Shown in pieces: positions 24,130-52,723 of a DNA stretch of 52,723 bases. The notes below the pieces were generated by a model. It saw only the letters and a list, made by a program, of their open reading frames with translations, had not been told where the DNA came from and ran no database searches. Source of the DNA: Clostridia bacterium (GTDB lineage: Bacteria > Bacillota > Clostridia > UMGS1883 > UMGS1540); the NCBI GenBank assembly GCA_045533905.1, contig JAZSIR010000023.1:1-52723 (forward strand). Direction: 5' to 3'. Both the position numbers and the translations under genes were made by a program. The first letter of the stretch is position 1; each line of letters opens with the position of its first letter.

Positions 24130-24322
24130 CCTTCCCTGCGTTGTGCGCCGGCGGTATCTATTTTAGCCAACACTAAAATGTAAGGGAGGCAAATCGTTTC
24201 TGCGGTGTGTTAGGCCCCCCGCCCGAAAGGCCGGTCTGAGGGTAACCCGTAAACAGAAAATATGCCACCCACCTGCATAACAGGTTAAAATTCTCCTGTA
24301 AGACGGCAATCGCGGGGCTATT
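24130..24322 (+). ncRNA. ssrS: 6S RNA (SsrS)
   Basis: Long irregular rod: CCCTGCG pairs with CGCGGGG, TTTTAGCC with GGTTAAAA, GGGAGGCA with TGCCACCC, TTTCTG with CAGAAA; A-rich central bubble; Firmicute-type GGGAG..CCCACCTG..CAGG..ACGGCA elements; about 190 nt. Confidence 0.8.
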
Positions 24323-40756: not shown

Positions 40757-41786
40757 TGTAGGAAATGTAAAGATTGGCGGCGGCGCACCCGTATCCGTGC
40801 AGACGATGACGACCACGGACACGCACGACGTTCGTAAAACCGTAGACCAGATTCGCCTTTTAGAAGAGGCGGGCGCAGATATTGTACGCCTTGCCGTGCC
40901 GGATCTTGCGGCGGCCGAAAGCTTTGCGGAAATTAAAAAGAAAACCACCGTACCGCTGGTGGCCGATATTCATTTCGATTACCGCATTGCCCTTCAGTGT
41001 ATTGCGGGCGGCGCCGATAAAATCCGCATCAATCCCGGCAACATCGGTGCGCCGGAAAGGGTGCGCGCAGTGGCGGAAGCGGCGAAATTTGCCGGCATTC
41101 CCATCCGCATCGGTGTAAACGGCGGCTCGCTCGAAAAAGAAATGTATGAAAAGTATGGCCATACGGCGCTCGCAATGGTAGAAAGCGCAAAATACCATGC
41201 TTCTCTTTTGGAGGAGGCAGGCTTTTCTGATATCATCATAAGCCTCAAAGCCTCAAATGTACAGAAAACGGTGGAAGCGTACCGTCTGATGGCGAAAAGC
41301 GCTTCATACCCCTTACATATCGGTGTTACCGAGGCAGGCACAGCCTATGCAGGCCTTATAAAATCTTCGGCAGGCATCGGAAGCCTTCTTCTGGACGGTA
41401 TAGGAGATACCATCCGCGTATCGCTTTCCGCACCGCCGGAGGAAGAGGTGCGCGCAGGCATTGCGCTTTTGAAGGCGCTGGACCTTCGGGCGGGTGCGGA
41501 GCTCATTTCCTGCCCCACCTGCGGCCGTTGTCGCATAGACCTTATGCCCGTTGCAAGGGAAATGGAAGCCTATCTTTCTAAAATTGACACGCCCATCCGC
41601 GTGGCCGTTATGGGCTGTGCTGTAAATGGCCCGGGCGAAGCGCGCGAAGCGCACGTGGGCGTTGCGGGCGGTGACGGAAAGGCGGTGCTGTTCCGGCACG
41701 GCGAAATCGTAAAAAGTATTTCCGAAGCAGAGATTCTGCCCGTCTTAAAGGGCGAAGTGGAAAGGATTATAAAAGAGTGGAAGTAA
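40743..41786 (+). CDS. ispG: (E)-4-hydroxy-3-methylbut-2-enyl-diphosphate synthase
   Basis: VADIHFD, RINPGN, IGVTEAG, SCPTCGR and MGCAVNGPGE motifs. Confidence 0.96.
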   Translation: MKQLNVGNVKIGGGAPVSVQTMTTTDTHDVRKTVDQIRLLEEAGADIVRLAVPDLAAAESFAEIKKKTTVPLVADIHFDYRIALQCIAGGADKIRINPGNIGAPERVRAVAEAAKFAGIPIRIGVNGGSLEKEMYEKYGHTALAMVESAKYHASLLEEAGFSDIIISLKASNVQKTVEAYRLMAKSASYPLHIGVTEAGTAYAGLIKSSAGIGSLLLDGIGDTIRVSLSAPPEEEVRAGIALLKALDLRAGAELISCPTCGRCRIDLMPVAREMEAYLSKIDTPIRVAVMGCAVNGPGEAREAHVGVAGGDGKAVLFRHGEIVKSISEAEILPVLKGEVERIIKEWK

Positions 41787-44700
41787 ACGGCACAAAGGCA
41801 ATTACAGAAGCTTTTGGCGGCGCTCCTATACCGAAGGACGCCGCTTGTTTTCGTGTGTCCAGATTACGGGTGGATGCCCCCACGCGCACAATGCGCGTGT
41901 CCTTTCTTCTGCCCGGGATTCCGCCGCATAGCGTAGTGCGCGCGCTTGAAAAAAGCCTTATGGAGCATTATGCACTCCATAAAATCGAAACAGAATTCAC
42001 ATTTGCCGCGCTTCCGCCTTTTGAGGAGCAGGCGGCGGCACTTGCGGGCTTTATTATCGGCCGCCTTTCGGAAGAAAAACCGGTTCTCGAATATGTGTTT
42101 AAGGATAGCGTATGGACAGAAACGGGGGAGGAACTTACCATCTGTCTCCATCACGGCGGTGCCGAGCTTCTGAAGGCAGAGTCCGCGCCTTCTGCAATCA
42201 CCCGTTTGTATGCCGCCTATACGGGGCGAAATGTTAAAATCTCCTTCACAGAAGAACTCGAAGAGGTGGATTTATCGGCGCGTCCGCTTCCGGTTGCCCC
42301 GCGTCCTGCAGTAAAAGAAACCGAGACTGCATCGGTATCTTCTGACGGCGCTATTTTAGGGAAGCTTATTGACAGCGAGCCCGCACCCATCAAAGGTATT
42401 GACGAAGGCAGTGGGCGTGTAACCGTGTGCGGGGAAGCGTTCGCGGTTGAGGGGCGTGACATTAAAGAGAAAAAGCTTCTCACCTTCAATATTACAGATA
42501 AAACCGATTCCATCACCTGCAAAATCTTTTTAACACCGGATAAATATACTGCCGTTTCCGCTTCTGTGAAAAACGGCGCCTATCTTCTTGTGCGCGGCAC
42601 GGCCGTTTTCGACTCGTTCGCGGGCGAGGTTGTCATTCGAGTGCAGGATATCTGTGCGGCGAAAAAACACGAGAAAGAGGATGTGGCACAGGAGAAGCGC
42701 GTAGAACTCCACGTGCACACACAGATGTCAAATATGGATGGCGTTTCAAGCGCCACCGCACTTGTGAAAAAAGCCATAAAATACGGGCATCCTGCCATTG
42801 CCATTACGGACCACGGCGTGGTGCAGTCCTTCCCGGAAGCTTATAAAGCGGCAAAGGGCTCTGATCTTAAGGTTATTTTTGGCGTAGAAGCCTACTTTGT
42901 GAATGACATAGGCGCTTCCCTCTACAAGGGCAAATCTTGGCCGGTAGACGGCGAAATGGTCGTTTTCGACATAGAAACTACGGGCCTTAGCCCGAAAACA
43001 GAGCGCATTACGGAAATCGGCGCCGTAAAAATCCGTGACGGGATTTTGTGCGAGACGTTTTCCACCTTCGTAAATCCTGACAAACCGATTCCGGCAAAGA
43101 TTGTGGAGCTGACGGGCATTACCGATGCTATGGTGGCGAATGCTCCGGCGGAGAAGGAAGCGGTAGAGGCATTTCTCGAATTCTGCGGCGATGCACCGAT
43201 TGTAGCGCATAACGCTTCGTTTGATACGAGCTTTATCCGCGCCGCGTGCGCCAGAATGGGCGTGCCCTATGCACCCTCCATTATCGATACGCTCGCGTTT
43301 TGCCGCGCGCTTGTTATCAGTAAGCGCCAGCATTCTCTCGATAAAATGGCAAAATATTTCGGCGTGGAAAATCCGGCACATCACCGTGCAGTAAACGATG
43401 CCGAGGTCTGTGCACAAATCTGGCTCGCCCTTTTGGAAAAGCTTCGCGCAATGGGCGTTTCCGACCTTGCCGATATCGACAAAAAAATGGCGGGAAATGT
43501 GGATATGAAGGCGCTTCCTTCGTACCATATGATTCTGCTTGCCAAAAACCGACAGGGGCTTTTTAACCTCTATACACTCATTACGAAATCGCATATGGAA
43601 TATTTCCATAAAACGCCGCGTATTCCGAAAAGCGAACTTATTCGCTACCGCGAGGGGCTTTTAATTGGCTCCGCGTGCGAAGCGGGCGAGCTTTTCCGCG
43701 CGATGGTAGCGGAGGAGCCGGAGGCAAACCTTCTGAAAATAGCCGAGTTTTATGATTATCTTGAAATCCAGCCGATCGGCAATAACCGCTTTATGATTGA
43801 AAATGGCACCGCGGCCGACGAGGAACAGCTGCGCGACTATAACCGCCGCATCATTGCAATGGGCGAAAAACTTGATAAACCGGTTGTGGCCACGGGTGAC
43901 GTACATTTTCTGAATAAAGAAGACGAGGTGTTCCGCCGCATCCTGATGGCGGGGAAGGGCTTTGACGATGCCGATAACCAGGCCCCCTTATATTTCCGCA
44001 CAACCAATGAAATGCTCGAGGAATTCGGATATCTCGGGGATGAAATGGCGCGCAAGGTTGTTATTGAAAACACCAATCGGATTGCCGAAATGATTGAAGG
44101 CATCCCGCCTGTACCTAAAGAAAAATGCCCGCCGGAAATCGAAGGATCCGACAGGGATATTATGAATATGAGCCGCGAAAAAGCAGAGAGAATTTACGGT
44201 TCGCCACTTCCTGAAATCGTACAAAAGCGTATGGACAGGGAACTCGACAGTATTATAAATAACGGCTTTGCCGTTATGTATATTATCGCGCATAAGCTCG
44301 TGAAAAAGTCGAATGAGGATGGCTATCTTGTAGGCTCCCGTGGCTCGGTAGGTTCCTCTTTTGTCGCCTTTTTGTCGGATATTACCGAGGTGAACGCGCT
44401 GCCGCCGCATTATGTGTGCAAACAGTGTAAGTATAGTGAGTTCGTAGAAAATATCTCGGGTTCGGGCTGCGACCTTCCCGATAAAAACTGCCCGAAGTGC
44501 GGCACGCCGCTGTATAAGGACGGGCACGATATTCCGTTTGAAACATTCCTTGGGTTTGACGGCGATAAGGCTCCGGATATAGACCTTAATTTCTCCGGCG
44601 ACTATCAGGCCACGGCACATAAGTATACAGAGGTTCTTTTCGGCGCGGAGAATGTTTTCAAGGCAGGCACCATTGGTACGCTTGCGGAAAAAACGGCGTA

Positions 44701-45988
44701 CGGCTATGTGCGGAAGTATTTTGAAGAACGCGGCCAGATGCTCCGTAAAGCGGAGCTTGACCGGTTAACGCTTGGCTGCACCGGCGTAAAACGTACAACC
44801 GGCCAGCATCCCGGCGGCATTGTTGTTTTGCCGAAAGGGCGCGATATCAACGAATTCTGTCCCGTGCAGCATCCGGCAGATAAAAGCGAAAGCGATGTAA
44901 AAACCACACATTTTGATTACCATTCTATCGACGAAAACCTCTTAAAGCTCGATATTCTCGGGCACGACGATCCGACCGTAATCCGAATGCTCGAAGATCT
45001 TACGGGGCTCGATGCCAAGGAAATCCCGCTCGATGATAAAGAAACGATGAGCCTTTTCACGGGGAAGGAAGCTCTGCATCTTAAGTCGGATATAAAAAGT
45101 ACCGTCGGCACACTCGCGATCCCCGAGTTCGGCACGGGCTTTGTACGGCAGATGCTTCTTGACACAAAACCGAAAACCTTCTCCGACCTTATCCGTATAA
45201 GCGGCCTTTCGCACGGTACGGATGTATGGCTCGGCAACGCGCAGGATATCGTGCGAAGCGGCACGGCGCCGCTGTCAGGCTGTATCTGCACGCGTGACGA
45301 TATTATGCTCTATCTCATTGCGCAAGGCGTAGCACCAAAACTCTCCTTCACCATTATGGAAGCTGTACGAAAAGGGAAGGGCTTAAAACCGGAATGGGAA
45401 GAAGAAATGCGCGCGAATAATGTGCCGAACTGGTACATAGACTCCTGCAACAAGATTCAGTATATGTTCCCGAAGGCACACGCGGCGGCGTATGTTACGA
45501 TGGCATTCCGCATTGCCTACTGCAAGGTGCATTATCCGCTTGCTTTCTATATGGCATATTACAGCGTCCGCGCCGATGATTTCGATGCGGCACTTATGGC
45601 AAACGGCCACAGCGTTGTAAAGGCGAAGATAGAGGAGCTTTCGGCACTCGAAACCAAAACGCAGAAGGATAAGAACGTGCTTTCGATTTTGGAAGTGTGT
45701 GACGAGATGTACGCCCGCGGCTATTCGTTCTGCCCGATTGATCTGTATACATCGGATGCTGAAAAATTCCAGGAGGTAGACGGCAAGATTCTCCCGCCGC
45801 TTACGAGTATGCAGGGGCTCGGCGCTTCCGCCGCGCACAGCATTGTGGAGGCTAGAAAAGAAGGACCGTTCCTCTCGATTGACGATCTGGTGCAGCGAAG
45901 CGGTGCCAATAAGTCGGTTATCGAGATTATGACGCGAAGCGGCGTTTTGGATGACCTTCCTGAAATCAGCCAGACAACATTATTCTGA
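41777..45988 (+). CDS. polC: DNA polymerase III PolC-type
   Basis: PHP domain interrupted by a DEDDh exonuclease (FDIETTG, HNA.FD, HRA..DA); RGSVGSS, PDIDLNF and YMFPKAHA motifs. Confidence 0.97.
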   Translation: MEVNGTKAITEAFGGAPIPKDAACFRVSRLRVDAPTRTMRVSFLLPGIPPHSVVRALEKSLMEHYALHKIETEFTFAALPPFEEQAAALAGFIIGRLSEEKPVLEYVFKDSVWTETGEELTICLHHGGAELLKAESAPSAITRLYAAYTGRNVKISFTEELEEVDLSARPLPVAPRPAVKETETASVSSDGAILGKLIDSEPAPIKGIDEGSGRVTVCGEAFAVEGRDIKEKKLLTFNITDKTDSITCKIFLTPDKYTAVSASVKNGAYLLVRGTAVFDSFAGEVVIRVQDICAAKKHEKEDVAQEKRVELHVHTQMSNMDGVSSATALVKKAIKYGHPAIAITDHGVVQSFPEAYKAAKGSDLKVIFGVEAYFVNDIGASLYKGKSWPVDGEMVVFDIETTGLSPKTERITEIGAVKIRDGILCETFSTFVNPDKPIPAKIVELTGITDAMVANAPAEKEAVEAFLEFCGDAPIVAHNASFDTSFIRAACARMGVPYAPSIIDTLAFCRALVISKRQHSLDKMAKYFGVENPAHHRAVNDAEVCAQIWLALLEKLRAMGVSDLADIDKKMAGNVDMKALPSYHMILLAKNRQGLFNLYTLITKSHMEYFHKTPRIPKSELIRYREGLLIGSACEAGELFRAMVAEEPEANLLKIAEFYDYLEIQPIGNNRFMIENGTAADEEQLRDYNRRIIAMGEKLDKPVVATGDVHFLNKEDEVFRRILMAGKGFDDADNQAPLYFRTTNEMLEEFGYLGDEMARKVVIENTNRIAEMIEGIPPVPKEKCPPEIEGSDRDIMNMSREKAERIYGSPLPEIVQKRMDRELDSIINNGFAVMYIIAHKLVKKSNEDGYLVGSRGSVGSSFVAFLSDITEVNALPPHYVCKQCKYSEFVENISGSGCDLPDKNCPKCGTPLYKDGHDIPFETFLGFDGDKAPDIDLNFSGDYQATAHKYTEVLFGAENVFKAGTIGTLAEKTAYGYVRKYFEERGQMLRKAELDRLTLGCTGVKRTTGQHPGGIVVLPKGRDINEFCPVQHPADKSESDVKTTHFDYHSIDENLLKLDILGHDDPTVIRMLEDLTGLDAKEIPLDDKETMSLFTGKEALHLKSDIKSTVGTLAIPEFGTGFVRQMLLDTKPKTFSDLIRISGLSHGTDVWLGNAQDIVRSGTAPLSGCICTRDDIMLYLIAQGVAPKLSFTIMEAVRKGKGLKPEWEEEMRANNVPNWYIDSCNKIQYMFPKAHAAAYVTMAFRIAYCKVHYPLAFYMAYYSVRADDFDAALMANGHSVVKAKIEELSALETKTQKDKNVLSILEVCDEMYARGYSFCPIDLYTSDAEKFQEVDGKILPPLTSMQGLGASAAHSIVEARKEGPFLSIDDLVQRSGANKSVIEIMTRSGVLDDLPEISQTTLF

Positions 45989-45994
45989 TATACC

Positions 45995-46024
45995 AAAAGG
46001 GTGTGACGAGAGTCACACCCTTTT
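45995..46024. terminator. Bidirectional intrinsic terminator
   Basis: AAAAGGGTGTGAC-gaga-GTCACACCCTTTT between polC and the convergent accessory operon. Confidence 0.85.
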
Positions 46025-46384
46025 AAGTTCATATTCTGCATCCAGCGTCAGCACATCGCTGTTTTGATTTGTGGTGTCTGCATTTTCCGCCACAAATACC
46101 TCGGCATCCGCAGAGAGCGCCAGATAGTGCCAGGTGCCGCGGCTCACATTGTAGGCAAAGCCCTCCGAAAGCGGCGTTTCTGTAAAATACCCGTCCTCCA
46201 TCGTCAGCATCACGGCCTCGCCTTTCAAAAGCACAAAAATTTCATCCGTTTCGTTGTGCCTTTTCATTTCCGTCACGGGGCCAAACGAATATTGCGCGCT
46301 TTTGGTTATAAAGGCGCACTTGAACCTTTCGTTTGTAAACACCGCGTCAAAGCCGGGTTTTTCTGCTTTTTTAACTGTCAGCAT
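46013..46384 (-). CDS. Cupin-fold metal-binding protein of unknown function
   Basis: RH..TDE.F.LL.G cupin motif 1 and YNV..GTWH motif 2. Confidence 0.65.
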   Translation of the reverse strand: MLTVKKAEKPGFDAVFTNERFKCAFITKSAQYSFGPVTEMKRHNETDEIFVLLKGEAVMLTMEDGYFTETPLSEGFAYNVSRGTWHYLALSADAEVFVAENADTTNQNSDVLTLDAEYELKRV

Positions 46385-46393
46385 AGCGTCCCC

Positions 46394-47650
46394 TTACTTT
46401 TCGTAGTCTAAAACTTCCCAGTCCTCCGGCGGGTTACCGAGGTCGACCACATCCATCGTCTTGCTGCCGGCCATTGCCGATTCGTGTGCCGTAAGGCCGG
46501 GGATGTTCCAGCGTGCAACTTCCCAGATGTTTGTGGGAGAGAGCTTGCCGGTTGCATATGCGCGGCAGAAATCGTCAATTAAGAAGTGATGCGTTCCGTT
46601 ATGGCCGTTTTCGATGCCTTCGTACTCTTTCGGGAGTCTCGCCGTCGGCTGAATGGGAGAGGTTTCAAAGAAGCCTGCGGTATCTGCAATTTCCTGCACG
46701 GCTTTGTCATAGTCGGAAATGATGCTGTTGTAAACACTTTCCGGCTGCAGGTCCTTTGTTACGTCCTTCATAATAACTTTGCCGGGGCGGTTTTCATCCC
46801 AATGCGCCAGGTGGTGGCGGGCAACGGCAAATTCGTAGCCACCGTCGGTGCCGTAGTACTGGGTGACATAGGTTTCAGGCGACATCCAGCCCACACATCT
46901 GTTTTCGCTGATTCTGGCAATACCGCCGTTTGAAAGCTCTACCATCATCGCGGTATTGGAGAACGGATTGTTATAGATGTTCTGGCCGTCCATACCGTAA
47001 ATGTCGGTTCGCGGGCTGCCGGCAAAGCCAAAGCCCACAACCTTTTTAACATATACGCCGGGCATTGTGGAAAGGATCATCGAGGTGGAGTGTGTGGGAT
47101 AGAACATCGGCGGAATGCCCGCAAACTTCTTCCATTCCTCTCCGCCCGAGCTTTTGAAGCTGTTTTCCATATTGCGGATATCGTGGTTATACTGCGCTTC
47201 TGCATATGTGAATTTGCCGAAGGTTCCCTTCTTGAATTCTTTTCTCAAAAAGATAGCAGGCGCTCTGTAAAAACCGGTTTCGCCCATCGAATAGGTAAGG
47301 CGGGTCTTGCGGACGAGGCTTTCGATTTCGACGAGCTCTTCCACCTTGGCGGCACCCGGAACGGCACTGTATACGTGCTTGCCGGCTTTGAGTGCCTGAA
47401 TGACAAGCGGCCCGTGCGAGGTTCGCGTTGTGAAAATAGCAACAGAGTTTACTTTATCGGAGGCAAGCGCCTCTTCAAAGCTGTCGATGATGTCCACATC
47501 AAATCTTTTCTGGAATTCTTCTGCACGCTCGCGGCGGGTGTCGCAAACATACACCTTTTCCACTTCGGGATGCGCCTTCCATAGCGGCACAAAGAACGGG
47601 CTGAATCTGCCACAGCCAATAATTGCAATTCTGATTTTTTCCTTTGCCAT
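46394..47650 (-). CDS. Gfo/Idh/MocA NAD-dependent oxidoreductase, GH109-like
   Basis: IAIIGCG Rossmann motif, H....AL.AGKHVYSAVP, YAEAQYNHD, YPTH and NGHNGTH. Confidence 0.8.
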   Translation of the reverse strand: MAKEKIRIAIIGCGRFSPFFVPLWKAHPEVEKVYVCDTRRERAEEFQKRFDVDIIDSFEEALASDKVNSVAIFTTRTSHGPLVIQALKAGKHVYSAVPGAAKVEELVEIESLVRKTRLTYSMGETGFYRAPAIFLRKEFKKGTFGKFTYAEAQYNHDIRNMENSFKSSGGEEWKKFAGIPPMFYPTHSTSMILSTMPGVYVKKVVGFGFAGSPRTDIYGMDGQNIYNNPFSNTAMMVELSNGGIARISENRCVGWMSPETYVTQYYGTDGGYEFAVARHHLAHWDENRPGKVIMKDVTKDLQPESVYNSIISDYDKAVQEIADTAGFFETSPIQPTARLPKEYEGIENGHNGTHHFLIDDFCRAYATGKLSPTNIWEVARWNIPGLTAHESAMAGSKTMDVVDLGNPPEDWEVLDYEK

Positions 47651-47652
47651 TT

Positions 47653-48642
47653 TTATCTCTCCTCTTTTTTAGGATCTGTGAAGTCCCACTCGTTTTCTCG
47701 CTTTAAGGTTTCGAACTGTTTTGTGCTCAGCTTCCAGTCCTCATCTTCACGGAATTTCCGTTTGAACTTTTTGGTGAGAAGCCCCTTCTCCTCGAGATGA
47801 ATGTAGCACGCTCTGTCGCACGCTCTTGCACAGATGGAGGTGCGGTAATAGTGCTTCGCAGGGGGGTAGAAATAGATGCTGTCTAAAATCTCCTTTGCCC
47901 CTTCTGTGTCAAATTCCGCCGTTCCGTTTATTATATCCATTCTGTTTTCGAAATCCATAAAGGCATCGGGCGGCATAAACGGGTTTTTCGAGCCGTTCGC
48001 ACCGTTATAGTAAACGGCGCAGCGCCAGGAGTCAAGCGTGCCGTCTTCCTTGATGGCTCTTCCCGGGCAAGCTTCGATGCATTTGCCGCATCTGTCGCAA
48101 AGACCTGCACCGCGCAGGGGAGAGGGCGCAATTTCCGCATCGGTTAAAATAAAGCAGTAGCGGATAAACGGGCCGTACTCCGGTGTCAGAAGAGAACCAA
48201 TCATACTCCGCTCGCCAAGGCCGCACTGAACCGCGCAATTCAAAAAGTCAATCTGATGCTCGGCTACAACGCCGCGCACAACGTCCGTATAGTCCATTTC
48301 GGGATTTGTTGCATACGGGTCGTTTACAATCAGCTGGTTCTTTCTTTGCGGCACGGCCGTAAAGCCTTCTTCCTCGATGAGGTTACTTACATTGATGAGT
48401 GCAAGCGGCATCACGGTTTCTTCAAGGTTTTCCACGCCCATCGTGGTGTACTGGTAGTACGTTGTGCCCTCTTCTGCCGTTCTGTAAATGCCGCGTAAAA
48501 CGCGAAAACCAAGGCCTACAACTGTTTTGGTTTCGGGGAAAATCTTAAAAATTTCGTCATCGGGCAAAAAACGACTTCTGTCCGCAAATCCGATAATATC
48601 CGCATCATATTTTTGCGCAAGCTCTATAATTTTGTTTTTCAT
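47653..48642 (-). CDS. QueG/reductive-dehalogenase-like cobalamin-[4Fe-4S] protein (paralog 3)
   Basis: ADIIGFA N-terminus, A..CGLGE....L.P.YGP..R...ILTD, CDRCGKCIEACP, WRC and CARACDRAC. Confidence 0.7.
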   Translation of the reverse strand: MKNKIIELAQKYDADIIGFADRSRFLPDDEIFKIFPETKTVVGLGFRVLRGIYRTAEEGTTYYQYTTMGVENLEETVMPLALINVSNLIEEEGFTAVPQRKNQLIVNDPYATNPEMDYTDVVRGVVAEHQIDFLNCAVQCGLGERSMIGSLLTPEYGPFIRYCFILTDAEIAPSPLRGAGLCDRCGKCIEACPGRAIKEDGTLDSWRCAVYYNGANGSKNPFMPPDAFMDFENRMDIINGTAEFDTEGAKEILDSIYFYPPAKHYYRTSICARACDRACYIHLEEKGLLTKKFKRKFREDEDWKLSTKQFETLKRENEWDFTDPKKEER

Positions 48643-49544
48643 ATTCTGCCCGCCTCCTTCAAATGCTTGTAGCATACAATTTCACAGCTTTTGCCGCACA
48701 GACAGGGCACATAGCCGAAGTGCGTGTTGGGCAAAAACGAAAGAGAGGGATATATTTTTTCGGCTTCCTCTTTCGTAAATTTCTTTTCGCCGCTTATAAT
48801 CGCTTCACGCTCGGGGTGGTCAGCCAGGAAATCCTCGCTCATAAACGGATTGGATTTGTGTGCCCCTCTGTAGTATACACTACATTGCCAGGTATCCACG
48901 CCGCCGCTTGCAATCGCTTTTCCGGGGCAGGCCGCCTGACACTTTCCGCACTTGTCGCAAAGGTCGCCTTCAAAAGGCGCATCAAAGTCGAGTGGCATAT
49001 CGGTAATAATATAAACAAAGCGCATAAACGTTCCGTACTTCGGCACAATCACCTTGCCGTGCAGCCCTTCTTTTCCAAGGCCGCAAACATACGCCGCCTT
49101 GTTATAGTCGATAATAACATCAGGCACGGGCTTGTCGTCACTAACGGGGCTTGCAAACTGCAACTCATAAATCCGGCTGACTTCGGGGTTCGTGGTTTTG
49201 TCACCCTTTACCTTAAAGCCCGGCACATATCTCTGGAGACACGCGTCATAGCCTTCATTTTCAATCATAGCCCCCATCTTCAGAAGAAAGATTTCAGCAA
49301 AGCTTTCGTCTATGTACTTGACGCCGAGGTTTACGTAGTTATAATACTGCGTTTTGATATCCATCGTGCCGTAGAGCCCGCGGGGCACTTTGATGCCAAA
49401 ACCGATAATGGCCTTTGCATTCGGCAGAATGGAAAACGGGTTGTGCTGCGGGTCATCACCGCGAAACATTTCAATATTCCCGATGCCGCAAAGGCTTGCA
49501 CCAAGCGCGGCGGCTTTTTCCTTTATATCTTTGGCTGTAAGCAT
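48639..49544 (-). CDS. QueG/reductive-dehalogenase-like cobalamin-[4Fe-4S] protein (paralog 2)
   Basis: LGASLCGIG, P..ILPNAKAII, CGLG..G.HG..P.YG..R...ITD, CDKCGKCQAACP, WQC and CLCGKSCEIVC; start MLTAKDIK after GGGGG. Confidence 0.7.
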   Translation of the reverse strand: MLTAKDIKEKAAALGASLCGIGNIEMFRGDDPQHNPFSILPNAKAIIGFGIKVPRGLYGTMDIKTQYYNYVNLGVKYIDESFAEIFLLKMGAMIENEGYDACLQRYVPGFKVKGDKTTNPEVSRIYELQFASPVSDDKPVPDVIIDYNKAAYVCGLGKEGLHGKVIVPKYGTFMRFVYIITDMPLDFDAPFEGDLCDKCGKCQAACPGKAIASGGVDTWQCSVYYRGAHKSNPFMSEDFLADHPEREAIISGEKKFTKEEAEKIYPSLSFLPNTHFGYVPCLCGKSCEIVCYKHLKEAGRI

Positions 49545-49555
49545 ATTCATCCCCC

Positions 49556-50635
49556 TTATCTGTCCATTTTCCAGGCTTTTTTCGTTCGCAGGGGCTCGTG
49601 GAATCTGCCTTCCATACAGCCGCCCTTTTTCTCTAAAACGCTGACGCAGGCGCGGATACATCCGCCGCATTTTGCCATATTGTAGCCCACCCAGCTCGGG
49701 AAGTACTTTTCAAGCGTCGTATACACCTTCATAATTTCTTTCTCATTTGCAACGTCTGTCTTTCCTTCTAAAAGGTCAAGCATACCGCCTTCGTTTTTGT
49801 CGAAAACCTCTTTGGGAACAAAGGGGTTATAATACCGGCCGCCGTGGGTGTAGAAGGCGTAGCAGCGCCACATATCAATGTCACCCCATTCGAGCTTTTT
49901 ACCGGCTAAGTCGACCGTGATGGTCTTGCCGGATTTAAGATCGGGGATACAGCCACCGGGACATTCTCTTACGCACGCGCCGCACTTTCTGCAAAGCGGC
50001 TCGCCCGAATACATTTCGTCATATTCGAGTTCCGCATCCGTGAAAATAAATGCGACTCTCTGGAGAGGCCCGAATTCGGGCGTAAGGAGCATTTTGCTCC
50101 AGCCGATTTCACCAAGGCCGCAGGCCACCGCTGCAATTCTGAACTGAAACTGCAAATCCGGCGGCACCTTACCTTTGGCCACCTCGCGTGTAAACTGCAC
50201 GCTTCTGTGATGCGCCGTTTTGCCCTTGGCGTGTTTGGAAACCTCAATCTGTTCCTCAGGGGAAAGGGAGTTGCCGGGGCTGCCGTCCATATCGGAAACG
50301 ATGCCTCTTGCCCCTGTGTTTCTGTATACAACCGCCTCATAGCCCTCGTCCTCAATCACTCTGCCGACGTGGTGCAAAACAGCGGGTGCGAAAATTTCGT
50401 TGATACCGCCGTATGCCATAGACGGATACTGATAAAACTGTGTACCCTCCTCAATTCCGCGCTGCACACCTCTCGGAATTCGGAAAACAAAGCCGATTAC
50501 GCTTTTGGCATTCGGAAAAAGGTAACGGGGGTCCATTTCCTTCGGTGCACCCTCAAAGCGCGACATGGGTGCGATGCCGCACTTGTCTGCCCCTGCCTCC
50601 AGTGCCGCCTTTTTGATCATCTCACTCGTTAACAT
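49556..50635 (-). CDS. QueG/reductive-dehalogenase-like cobalamin-[4Fe-4S] protein (paralog 1)
   Basis: GADKCGIA, DP..LFPNAKSVI, AAVACGLGEIGWS..LLTPEFGP.QR...FTD, CRKCGACVRECP, WRC and CGGCIRAC. Confidence 0.72.
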   Translation of the reverse strand: MLTSEMIKKAALEAGADKCGIAPMSRFEGAPKEMDPRYLFPNAKSVIGFVFRIPRGVQRGIEEGTQFYQYPSMAYGGINEIFAPAVLHHVGRVIEDEGYEAVVYRNTGARGIVSDMDGSPGNSLSPEEQIEVSKHAKGKTAHHRSVQFTREVAKGKVPPDLQFQFRIAAVACGLGEIGWSKMLLTPEFGPLQRVAFIFTDAELEYDEMYSGEPLCRKCGACVRECPGGCIPDLKSGKTITVDLAGKKLEWGDIDMWRCYAFYTHGGRYYNPFVPKEVFDKNEGGMLDLLEGKTDVANEKEIMKVYTTLEKYFPSWVGYNMAKCGGCIRACVSVLEKKGGCMEGRFHEPLRTKKAWKMDR

Positions 50636-51629
50636 ACACGTCCTCCTCCAGTTTTATAATTGCCGAATCTGCATTTGTATAGAGCAGTTTGTTATCTTTC
50701 GCTTCACTTCGGATTTTGCCATTGTCCACAATATACGGATAGAGACCCGAGGCGTGGTTCGGTTCCAGAAGGGAAAGGATATTCCCGACATATTTTTTAT
50801 CTTCTATATAGGCTCGCATAACCGCAAACGGGTCTGCACTGACGCGCGTTGCCAGCTTGAGGGAAGGGAAAAGGCCTTCGTAAAGGTGCACATCCTCAGG
50901 CCGGATAAAGCTGGACACGTCAAAGAGCTTGTAGATATTTTCGTCTTTTTTGAGAAAATCGCGGCAAACGCCGGAGAAAGCGAAGCCATTATCCATTTCG
51001 GAAATTTCGCTCTCGTGCGAAACTAAATTATCGTGAAAAACGTGCGCCGAGCAGTTGTTTAGGCAGCCGCTGTTGGCAAGCGCGTAGAGCTTTTTGCCAT
51101 TTTGGTCGCACCACTCCTTGATTTCGCGGATTTTCGTAAAGTCGCGGTTCAGCTCTCTTTTTAAGTAGAAGCTGTCAAAGTAATCCATTACATATTCCAT
51201 TCCCTCACAGCTTCCGATGGACATATTTACGGAGGCGCGCACATCCACATCTTCAAAATTTTCTTTAATAAAGCGTGCGATGAGGGGAGAGGTTGTGGTG
51301 ATACCGTTTAATATGTACTGCGTTTTCACATAGTCTGTGGTGTTACCTATTTTTTCGAAAAACGCGCGCGACTGGCTGTTTTTGCCATAGCAGGTTGCAT
51401 TGAAAAGGAGGTTTACGGGGATGCCTGCTGCCGTAAGCTTTGCAAGATCTGCCCGTTGTTTTTCGCCTGCTTCAAAGGGGAGCATATCACTTCTTTTGAG
51501 CTGATTGTTCCGGCCGTTCGGAAAGTCGCCCCACGAGAAATATACTTCGGAGATAAAGTCTTTATATCTGCATATCGCATCCACCAAACTGTCGTCTCCA
51601 AAAAGTTGATAACCGACTGAAAATTTCAT
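50622..51629 (-). CDS. U32-peptidase-like TIM-barrel Fe-S protein (putative O2-independent hydroxylase family)
   Basis: NLLFNATC, RASVN, RELNRD, LANSGCLNNC...H, FIRPED..Y and LKLATR patterns resemble a divergent U32 subfamily. Confidence 0.6.
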   Translation of the reverse strand: MKFSVGYQLFGDDSLVDAICRYKDFISEVYFSWGDFPNGRNNQLKRSDMLPFEAGEKQRADLAKLTAAGIPVNLLFNATCYGKNSQSRAFFEKIGNTTDYVKTQYILNGITTTSPLIARFIKENFEDVDVRASVNMSIGSCEGMEYVMDYFDSFYLKRELNRDFTKIREIKEWCDQNGKKLYALANSGCLNNCSAHVFHDNLVSHESEISEMDNGFAFSGVCRDFLKKDENIYKLFDVSSFIRPEDVHLYEGLFPSLKLATRVSADPFAVMRAYIEDKKYVGNILSLLEPNHASGLYPYIVDNGKIRSEAKDNKLLYTNADSAIIKLEEDVYVNE

Positions 51630-51646
51630 ATTGCACCTCCTTATGC

Positions 51647-51675
51647 TTGACTATAGCACAAAGTGGTGCTATAAT
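51647..51675. promoter_or_regulatory. Overlapping divergent promoters of araC and the operon
   Basis: Plus strand TTGACT-17 bp-TATAAT with TG extension; minus strand extended -10 TGCTATAGT; together they form TATAGCAC-N6-GTGCTATA. Confidence 0.6.
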
Positions 51676-51723
51676 GTATTAAAAAATCAGCAAAAAATAT
51701 AACAAAACAAAGAAGGATGCAAA

Positions 51724-52572
51724 ATGAAAGTTTCAGATATCAACCCGCATATCCGCTACTGCAAGGCACACTTGGCACCCACAAATACAGTGCGAACCAG
51801 CGTTTGCTATGACTGCAGAATCTTCTATATGGAAACGGCTGCGGGCCATGTGCTCATCAATGGTGTGAAATATAACTTTTCAAACGGCGATATGGTGTAT
51901 CTTCCTCCCCAAACCCACTACCGCTTCACCTTCAGCCCGTGCGAAAAATTCAAGATTGCGGTACTGGACTTTGACCTTGTGAATGATTTTTCAGACAGGA
52001 AAGAATCCCTCGGCACCGCAACGGAAGAAAGCTTTTGCCCCGATATGGTACCGGACTATGCGCTTTGTGCAGAACTTTCCGAGCCGATTATCCGAAATAT
52101 GCCAAAGCTCGCCTCAGCCATTTCGGAGAGTGCGGACGGCTTTTTAAAAAAGCCTTTATTCTATCGGGAACGCGCTTCGGCGATGCTGAAGCTCTGCCTT
52201 CTGGAGCTGGTGCAGAAGAACACGATGAACAGCCCGTACTCCCAGCTTTGCGAAAGCGTGCTTTCTTATATTCACGAAAACTACGCCGATCCCACGCTAA
52301 CAAACGAAATCATTGCAAAAAAGTTCAATTATCATCCGTATCACTTAAGCCGGATTATCAGACAGGAAACCGGCAGAACCCTGCATCAGTACCTTGCATA
52401 TTACCGCGTGCACATCGCAAAAAATCTTCTGGTAACTACGGAATATGACATCGAGGAAATTGCCTGGAGAGCCGGCTTTTCCTCTGCCGCTTATTTCATT
52501 AAAACCTTCCGGACTGATACAACGATGACCCCGAAAAAATACAGAAACCTGCATTTTCATATTGAACTATGA
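51724..52572 (+). CDS. AraC family transcriptional regulator
   Basis: N-terminal cupin-like sensor domain; C-terminal double HTH (YIHENY, LSRI.RQETG, IA..AGFSSAAYF.K.FR...MTP..YR). Confidence 0.93.
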   Translation: MKVSDINPHIRYCKAHLAPTNTVRTSVCYDCRIFYMETAAGHVLINGVKYNFSNGDMVYLPPQTHYRFTFSPCEKFKIAVLDFDLVNDFSDRKESLGTATEESFCPDMVPDYALCAELSEPIIRNMPKLASAISESADGFLKKPLFYRERASAMLKLCLLELVQKNTMNSPYSQLCESVLSYIHENYADPTLTNEIIAKKFNYHPYHLSRIIRQETGRTLHQYLAYYRVHIAKNLLVTTEYDIEEIAWRAGFSSAAYFIKTFRTDTTMTPKKYRNLHFHIEL

Positions 52573-52586
52573 AAAGCACCGACTTT

Positions 52587-52723
52587 TGAACAAGTCCAGT
52601 AAAAACGGACAATAGAAAAAAAGCACCTCCTATGGTAGAATAAAAATACCATAGGAGGTTTTGTTATGTCAGGAATTAAAGGAATGAAAAAGTATCCACA
52701 AGGAATTAGAGAAAAGATTGTAT
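52587..52723 (+). mobile_element. Probable left end of an IS3/IS150-family insertion sequence (truncated by the window edge)
   Basis: TG-initiated terminal-IR-like sequence TGAACAAGTCCAGTAAAAACGGACA, an RBS-occluding 13-bp hairpin, and an ORF start resembling an OrfA HTH; the right end and catalytic domain are not in the window. Confidence 0.5.
52666..52723 (+). CDS. Partial ORF, probable IS3-family OrfA (MSGIKGMKKYPQGIREKIV...)
   Basis: ATG after AGGAGG; the KY....R..IV pattern resembles OrfA N-termini; only 19 codons visible. Confidence 0.45.
   Translation, partial: MSGIKGMKKYPQGIREKIV

Follow-up and report, generated by a model that had tools for sequence, protein, structure and literature searches.

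A tandem triad of diverged paralogues at positions 47653-50635 of contig JAZSIR010000023.1, from a Clostridia bacterium (assembly GCA_045533905.1), resembles by sequence a class III cobalamin reductase, and it is a member of neither QueG (epoxyqueuosine reductase) nor RdhA (reductive dehalogenase). The window that we analysed is the whole stretch of 52,723 nt, part of a 1.57-Mb genome that is 95.5% complete; we call the three minus-strand genes Q1, Q2 and Q3. We propose that they encode one cytoplasmic heteromeric cobamide reductase acting on a modified sugar, in which Q1 would be the catalytic subunit, Q2 and Q3 would serve as electron relay or scaffold, and a protein of U32 type would be an obligate partner. 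We assign this reading a probability of roughly 0.45, somewhat short of even odds.

The triad was described in a sequence-only reading of this DNA as three tandem, diverged QueG/RdhA-like paralogues, and open reading frames (ORFs), coding scores and purifying selection all mark these as real genes. The three ORFs together fill the interval. Start positions chosen by ribosome-binding site and codon score (50635, 49544 and 48642) give a Q1 of 359 amino acids (aa) at 49556..50635, a Q2 of 301 aa at 48639..49544 and a Q3 of 329 aa at 47653..48642, all on the minus strand, with coding scores of +145, +107 and +128, respectively. Longer upstream extensions of these ORFs and a 340-aa antisense ORF had negative coding scores and were rejected as coding sequence. 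The stop of Q2 overlaps the start of Q3 (ATGA), and Q1 is 33% identical to Q2 and 35% to Q3. Compared with their L028 orthologues, non-synonymous divergence (dN) was 0.013 for Q1 and 0.098 for Q2, both at a synonymous divergence (dS) of 1.5, and 0.087 for Q3 at a dS of 2.2. Such low dN at dS of 1.5-2.2 indicates that all three are under purifying selection and that none is a pseudogene.

Profile comparison makes it clear that the triad is homologous to the class III cobalamin/[4Fe-4S] superfamily, with a predicted nitroreductase-type module and an eight-cysteine ferredoxin pattern. HHalign profile-profile alignment over about 250 columns gave probabilities of 99.84% to QueG and 99.94% to RdhA. 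Against the family models, Q1, Q2 and Q3 scored 26.6, 43.8 and 39.4 bits with TIGR00276 (QueG; cut-off 200), and 41-50 bits with TIGR02486 (RdhA; cut-off 160). We built a 188-row FastTree tree and a 54-row IQ-TREE mixture tree, both unrooted and with QueG and RdhA controls drawn only from the host phylum. Both trees set the branch apart from QueG and RdhA. In the IQ-TREE tree, a 34-row clade containing the triad was split from QueG plus RdhA with 99/97 support; QueG formed one side of a 100/100 branch and RdhA one side of a 97/94 branch, with the triad in neither. Forcing QueG and the triad together was rejected by the approximately unbiased (AU) test (p=0.0008), which removes a placement inside the QueG clade. 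In the ESM Atlas, only unnamed ferredoxin-type or U32-leaning clusters were matched.

The motifs reported earlier were all found, namely CGLG..P.(F/Y)G..R...TD, CxxCxxCxxxCP, W.C, (P/L)RG, the EEGT/DIKT segment and NPF(M/V). As a private motif, NP[FLY][MV] occurred in 76/76 Q1, 59/76 Q2 and 76/76 Q3 proteins and in none of 29 QueG or 31 RdhA controls. The EEGT/DIKT segment is likewise present in all three paralogues, but the form DIKTQYYNY turned out to be a local variant of Q2. The DYH motif, present in 29/29 QueG controls, was found in 0/76 proteins of each paralogue, as was the twin-arginine translocation (TAT) pattern that 11/31 RdhA controls carry. Positions 44001-52723 of the window hold no small ORF with at least two membrane helices that could be an RdhB-like anchor. 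Taken with the profile scores, the trees and the AU test, these motif counts support the idea of an unstudied, cytoplasmic group distinct from both QueG and RdhA. Q2 and Q3 were sisters in both trees, with Q1 next to them. They had been paired before by their distal cysteine spacing (CxxxCxxxC in both and CxxCxxxC in Q1); the spacings are as described and the pairing holds, but the spacing is not diagnostic, because it varies among single-copy relatives (C-x4-C in L037 and L038). As a marker of catalytic versus accessory subunits it was rejected, since it varies among complete relatives.

With QueG (TIGR00276; PDB 5D08 and 5D6S) the triad shares the nitroreductase-type B12 module and the eight-cysteine double [4Fe-4S] pattern, and Q1 keeps an equivalent of QueG Arg141 plus an aspartate near the Asp134 position. 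It differs in lacking DYH, in its separate clade, in having three unequal paralogues where QueG is a monomer (excerpts of PMC4646009), and in its U32 partner and sugar-type regulation. The C-terminal helical-repeat RNA-binding domain of QueG had no counterpart in the alignment, and the Q proteins end 10-50 residues past the last cysteine. RdhA (PceA, 4UQU and 8Q4H; NpRdhA, 4RAS) provides the best sequence matches and shares the GP..R motif with its Arg305 equivalent and, in Q1 only, a probable tyrosine above the corrin. Unlike RdhA, the triad has no TAT signal, RdhB, reductase domain or proline after the last cysteine, and it lies outside the RdhA clade in a glycoside context.

The three paralogues are unequal at the predicted B12 site. 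Excerpts of PMC5175355 report that Arg141 of QueG blocks the lower face of cobalamin and that R141A lowers queuosine; according to excerpts of PMC4646009, every class III enzyme has a tyrosine over the corrin, and RdhA has Arg305. In the HHalign alignment, R166 of Q1 falls on R141 of a QueG control (L121). We anchored counts at this position on the G-L-G motif, which parsed 119/120 Q1, 109/112 Q2 and 110/113 Q3 proteins, and found arginine in 119/119 Q1, 0/109 Q2 and 1/110 Q3; the QueG controls have arginine in 27/29 and lysine in the remaining two. Y75 is present in 76/76 Q1 proteins, and the same position holds V, I or L in Q2 and Q3 (valine in both proteins here). Also invariant in 76/76 Q1 are D160, R166, S180, R193 (the PceA Arg305 equivalent) and eight cysteines. 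All eight Fe-S cysteines and the Arg305 equivalent are kept in Q2 and Q3 too, and each has invariant residues of its own (K76 in Q2; E71 and E128 in Q3). Of the RdhA pair Tyr246/Arg305, the arginine is thus found in all three, and a conserved tyrosine in Q1 only, at a register ambiguous by five residues.

Across 59 diverse relatives, 32 had both Y75 and R166, 15 had neither, 8 had only the arginine and 4 only the tyrosine, a co-variation with a Fisher p of 3e-5 among kin that are not independent. Mean identity, in loci picked by their U32-type gene, was 78% for Q1, 62% for Q2 and 59% for Q3. It is likely, on these residue patterns, that Q1 alone keeps the B12-site residues and that Q2 and Q3 are degenerate there. 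We annotate Q1 as the predicted catalytic cobamide/2x[4Fe-4S] subunit and Q2 and Q3 as predicted accessory Fe-S subunits.

The branch is large, with 2,530 proteins at E<=0.001 among 4,364 candidates, and a scan of genome contigs confirmed at least 359 relatives among 649 stretches. That scan kept 80 relatives, 72-97% identical to Q1, whose carriers include Clostridia metagenome-assembled genomes (MAGs; the closest of those kept), Lentisphaerae, Kiritimatiellia and a Planctomycetaceae bin. Across phyla the branch is conserved at 73-79% identity; carriers are gut and sediment anaerobes, and the best-matching ones are mostly animal-gut genomes. Genome and metagenome scans together gave 163 loci, 115 with the triad and 78 of those well flanked; the 78 are related and partly redundant. 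The order Q1-Q2-Q3 was seen in 83 of the 93 loci listed (six of the 93 are duplicates), and five loci with only Q1 and Q2 terminate at contig edges. Within the host family the triad is patchy (10/22 genomes). The genes flanking the cassette differ from one family genome to another, a pattern that agrees with a module being acquired, lost or relocated whole.

Related architectures recur. In one locus (L105), Q2 and Q3 are fused in frame into a single 619-aa protein, next to a copy that is not fused. The same genome as the triad holds a fourth, single-copy Q1-like paralogue (L037, G000:C1:80008-82087), 40% identical to Q1 and with tyrosine and arginine kept; it is followed by a second U32-type gene and preceded by GH39, beta-helix and AraC genes. 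The cultured anaerobe Oligosphaera ethanolica DSM 24202 (G422; L106, L186-L196) has expanded the branch to 20 genes in 12 loci, with three U32-type genes. These loci comprise singles, pairs, triads and three long fusions, mostly beside IclR or GntR regulators or glycoside enzymes. Two other Oligosphaera triads each combine one complete gene with two degenerate ones; the degenerate partners form their own clade (100/97), have no tyrosine and lack one cysteine of the B12-proximal cluster. Because that clade is separate, the design of one complete plus two degenerate genes arose at least twice. A sister family has several QueG-like modules fused into chains of 725-836 aa (24 representatives, for example P0162, P0166 and P0186); the ferredoxin motif is missing from the middle module of those chains that were read. 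We rejected these chains as Q1-Q2-Q3 fusions, as they form a sister clade in the trees.

The conserved unit exceeds the three paralogues, and the operon partners belong to the cassette. Its order is U32-type gene, Q1, Q2, Q3, Gfo/Idh/MocA gene and cupin, tightly coupled, with an AraC gene divergent from it. The sequence-only reading had singled out the triad correctly but left its unit incomplete, missing the U32-type gene, itself a core member, and the neighbours resembling glycosidases, which hint at sugar catabolism. The U32-type gene (50622..51629, minus strand; 335 aa), whose 3' end overlaps the start of Q1, occurs in 11/11 branch-carrying host-family genomes (the ten with the triad and one with a single-copy gene), in 0/11 others, and in 74/78 well-flanked triad loci. 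Its protein was modelled at a predicted local distance difference test (pLDDT) score of 93, and the nearest solved structure is the U32 protein Mk0906 (5d88; E 4e-10, template-modelling scores 0.53/0.69); the Pfam PF01136 match reaches only E 0.058. Like U32 proteins (Mk0906; UbiU/UbiV, TrhP and RlhA) it has a triosephosphate isomerase (TIM) barrel and four invariant cysteines. These are spaced C80...C189-x3-C193...C222, with H199 and H205 also invariant, and not as the U32 oxidase motif CX6CX15CX3C (excerpts of PMC11574389), which was found in 0/70 partners. The partner is tied to B12-fold reductases, not to quinone or RNA pathways.

We also weighed whether the U32-type protein might be the real catalyst, an oxygen-independent oxidase, with Q1-Q3 forming an Fe-S wire, mostly or entirely free of B12, to take up its electrons. 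The strict co-occurrence of its gene with the triad and the eight cysteines kept in all three Q proteins speak for this, and excerpts of PMC10990095 state that known U32 oxidases need an electron acceptor of unidentified nature. We nevertheless consider it unlikely: Q1 is the most constrained protein (dN as above; 78-81% mean identity) and the U32-type protein the least conserved of the four (51%), B12-site residues are kept in Q1, Oligosphaera ethanolica has far fewer U32-type than branch genes, and the canonical cysteine motif is missing from the partner. As the least conserved of the four, the U32-type protein would fit a partner or maturase better than a substrate-specific enzyme.

The sequence-only reading had offered a hetero-oligomer or three enzymes in sequence, and the heteromer fits better. 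Three separate cobamide enzymes acting in turn on related intermediates would agree with the paralogue-specific invariant residues, the retained Arg305 equivalent and purifying selection on all three genes. Against this, the tyrosine and Arg141 equivalents are gone from Q2 and Q3, which also evolve faster. Such degeneration has happened a second time, independently, in the other degenerate clade, where a cysteine of the B12-proximal cluster is lost as well, and a Q2-Q3 fusion is known. We prefer the heteromer because the residues lost from Q2 and Q3 are kept by Q1 and by most single-copy relatives, and rate a sequence of enzymes as a shade less likely than an oxidase role for the U32-type protein.

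The neighbouring genes suggest a sugar substrate. Downstream of Q3 lies a Gfo/Idh/MocA gene (46394..47650, minus strand; PF01408) for a predicted NAD+ enzyme, present in exactly the 10 triad genomes among the 22 of the host family. Its residues E124, Y154 and H156 are invariant and align to E149, Y179 and H181 of the GH109 enzyme NagA, which we take to be catalytic there, just as we take the YPTH motif of Gfo to be a GH109 match. Overall identity to these accessory-type enzymes is low: the top PDB match, the glycoside 3-oxidase DgpA (7XR9), scores above GH109 (2ixa), and PF21252 (GH109_C) reaches 16 bits against a cut-off of 27. The Gfo protein is likely an oxidoreductive glycosidase or a glycoside 3-dehydrogenase. 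Elsewhere a GH129-like (DUF5696) gene stands beside the triad, again an accessory gene of low overall identity. Its profile matches NagBb, a GH129 alpha-N-acetylgalactosaminidase (5WZN; E 2e-42), and the positions of NagBb W398, D435 and E478 are conserved; the latter two are presumably catalytic. The NagBb tryptophan is described in excerpts of PMC8106489.

Among the well-flanked loci, 18/78 have the GH109-like gene, 18/78 the GH129-like gene and 0/78 both, an exclusion with a hypergeometric p of 0.004 that kinship overstates. This pattern suggests that the two genes are alternative means of releasing a similar alpha-linked sugar. The GH129-like gene was found in 0/22 host-family genomes, by a search without a positive control; this family carries the Gfo version. 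A close AraC homologue flanks 42/78 well-flanked triad loci, with other AraC, LacI or IclR regulators elsewhere, and a cupin is found in 25/78. Branch relatives adjoin GH39, GH127, GH3, GH63-like, esterase or glycyl-radical genes, or an isomerase-kinase-aldolase set. In L188:6705-13759 a Q1-like gene and a U32-type gene stand in one run with genes for a class II aldolase, a fucose-isomerase-like protein and an FGGY kinase, which is, as judged from gene content, the clearest sugar-catabolic context of the branch.

The host probably uses cobamide, to judge from an 822-aa MetH without the C-terminal reactivation domain (L282:1338-3806) and an energy-coupling factor (ECF) transporter (L281) behind a cobalamin-riboswitch match that is cut by the contig end (30.7 bits, cut-off 31.5). 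From the observed gene structure, conservation, phylogeny, residue asymmetry and co-occurrence we infer cofactors, a complex, a direction of electron flow and a substrate class, as follows. A glycosidase (GH109-like here, GH129-like elsewhere) would free a modified, probably alpha-linked sugar that AraC would sense. The cobamide, in its base-off form, would sit on Q1, which would be the site of the chemistry; low-potential electrons would reach it by way of the Q2/Q3 and Q1 [4Fe-4S] pairs and reduce it to Co(I). Co(I) may then drive the reductive loss of a substituent, oxygen or another heteroatom, comparable to the epoxide deoxygenation by QueG, with Tyr75, Asp160 and Arg193 of Q1 as likely proton donors. 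As obligate partner, the U32-type protein would act either as an electron source or as a maturation factor.

Several observations weigh against this proposal. RdhA has no Arg141 equivalent in the control alignment and yet binds cobamide (excerpts of PMC5175355), so that loss of this arginine is no proof that Q2 and Q3 are cofactor-free, and both retain the Arg305 equivalent. An ungapped profile alignment sets the RdhA tyrosine on E80 of Q1, five residues from Y75; we prefer Y75 as the counterpart because it is conserved and position 80 is variable among relatives. The structure model of Q1 is poor (pLDDT 58, with pocket segments below 50) and comes from a shallow alignment (84% column identity), and its top Foldseek matches, QueG and PceA, reach only E 2e-3 to 5e-3. 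Complete genes often occur singly beside a U32-type gene (L037, L187, L188 and L190), and as many relatives work as single genes the fold does not require a heteromer. The Q2-Q3 fusion is a single case, in a MAG. With regard to the substrate, both glycosidase genes are missing from 42/78 flanked loci, and they occur together in L108, which is not one of the 78. The cobalamin riboswitch occurs in 18/22 family genomes, including genomes without the cassette.

As an alternative to the sugar-directed heteromer, it is improbable that the triad is a cytoplasmic reductive dehalogenase of catabolic type, acting on natural organohalides. The best hidden Markov model and PDB matches are RdhA and PceA, the Arg305 equivalent is kept, Q1 has a candidate tyrosine, and Oligosphaera shows an expansion of RdhA-like genes. 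The TIGR02486 scores fall far below cut-off, however, the triad lies outside the RdhA clade, and its neighbours are glycosidases and sugar regulators in carriers that, among the best matches, are mostly from animal guts. We give equally little credence to a cofactor-service module, for CblC-like cobamide reduction or dealkylation or for supplying low-potential electrons to glycyl-radical activases or corrinoid methyltransferases. The fold is common to CblC (excerpts of PMC4646009), CblD is matched weakly, a URO-D-family gene lies in L190 and glycyl-radical enzymes adjoin branch genes. Among six sources scanned with Rfam models, the window and five related loci, none had a cobalamin riboswitch, though, and each locus has a substrate-type regulator; that one genome has twelve loci under different regulation points to a range of substrates and not to one housekeeping task. 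Least probable is a non-canonical epoxyqueuosine reductase or other RNA-modifying system combining a U32 hydroxylase with a QueG-like reductase: the host genome has queA and tgt (G000:C11:127471-129609), with no QueG above cut-off and no QueH found, and known U32 proteins modify RNA (excerpts of PMC5727448), but the triad has neither DYH nor the RNA-binding domain, its placement within QueG is rejected, 5/5 triad-carrying relatives checked have a separate DYH-type QueG, and the cassette is patchy and AraC-linked in a nearly complete genome.

The host also encodes a short, 237-aa QueG-like protein without DYH, from another uncharacterised group (G000:C23, L283:4069-4782). The glycyl-radical enzymes beside branch genes lie at L070:8520-10532, L192:4287-6359 and L194:13623-15500; two are complete (671 and 691 aa), and none reached the cut-off of a named family. 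A radical S-adenosylmethionine (SAM)/SPASM gene sits inside or beside the cassette in L057:5969-6952, L032, L111 and L116, and its best match is the metalloenzyme maturase model TIGR04317 (248 bits; cut-off 380). A recurrent neighbour of 663-685 aa (L066:10405-12459, L061:11942-15994), located near glycerol-phosphate dehydrogenase-like genes, had no match in Pfam, NCBIfam or PDB. In the window itself, the AraC-family regulator (51724..52572, plus strand; PF12833, E 6e-22) diverges from the operon across a shared intergenic region (51630..51723). A consensus scan, which is not functional evidence, placed there a sigma70-like match (11/12 with TG; 51647-51675, plus strand) facing araC. The small, accessory cupin gene (46013..46384, minus strand; PF07883, E 5e-6), whose operon position varies, follows the Gfo gene. 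In the interval 41777-46013 the cassette ends 25 bases from a convergent polC-like gene, and a 6S RNA lies at 24130-24322 on the plus strand (Rfam RF00013, 79 bits).

Searches of the literature, largely of open-access papers, returned no description of the triad system. The novel clade of an RdhA-like survey has TAT signals, membrane helices and RdhB, and in excerpts of that survey (PMC12219181) U32 and Lentisphaerae are not mentioned; that clade is membrane-linked and different from the branch described here. As [4Fe-4S] class III cobalamin enzymes, excerpts of PMC4646009 list dehalogenation and epoxyqueuosine reduction only, and predict further families that are hard to find by sequence motifs. 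It is possible, if doubtful, that the triad represents a third functional family of this class, with a catalytic subunit and two pseudo-enzyme relays, coupled to a new U32 subtype, that would use Co(I) to break C-O or C-N bonds reductively in modified sugars, which might resemble alpha-GalNAc. The residue asymmetry predicts that each trimer would carry a single cobamide, on Q1, and that an R166A change would abolish or impair this, and with Oligosphaera ethanolica as a cultured carrier the branch is testable now. If this is true, anaerobic glycan breakdown would gain a new kind of B12 chemistry, and a U32 protein might gain a defined electron partner, with a bearing on B12 use by gut anaerobes, the fermentation of modified sugars and the role of non-canonical U32 proteins.

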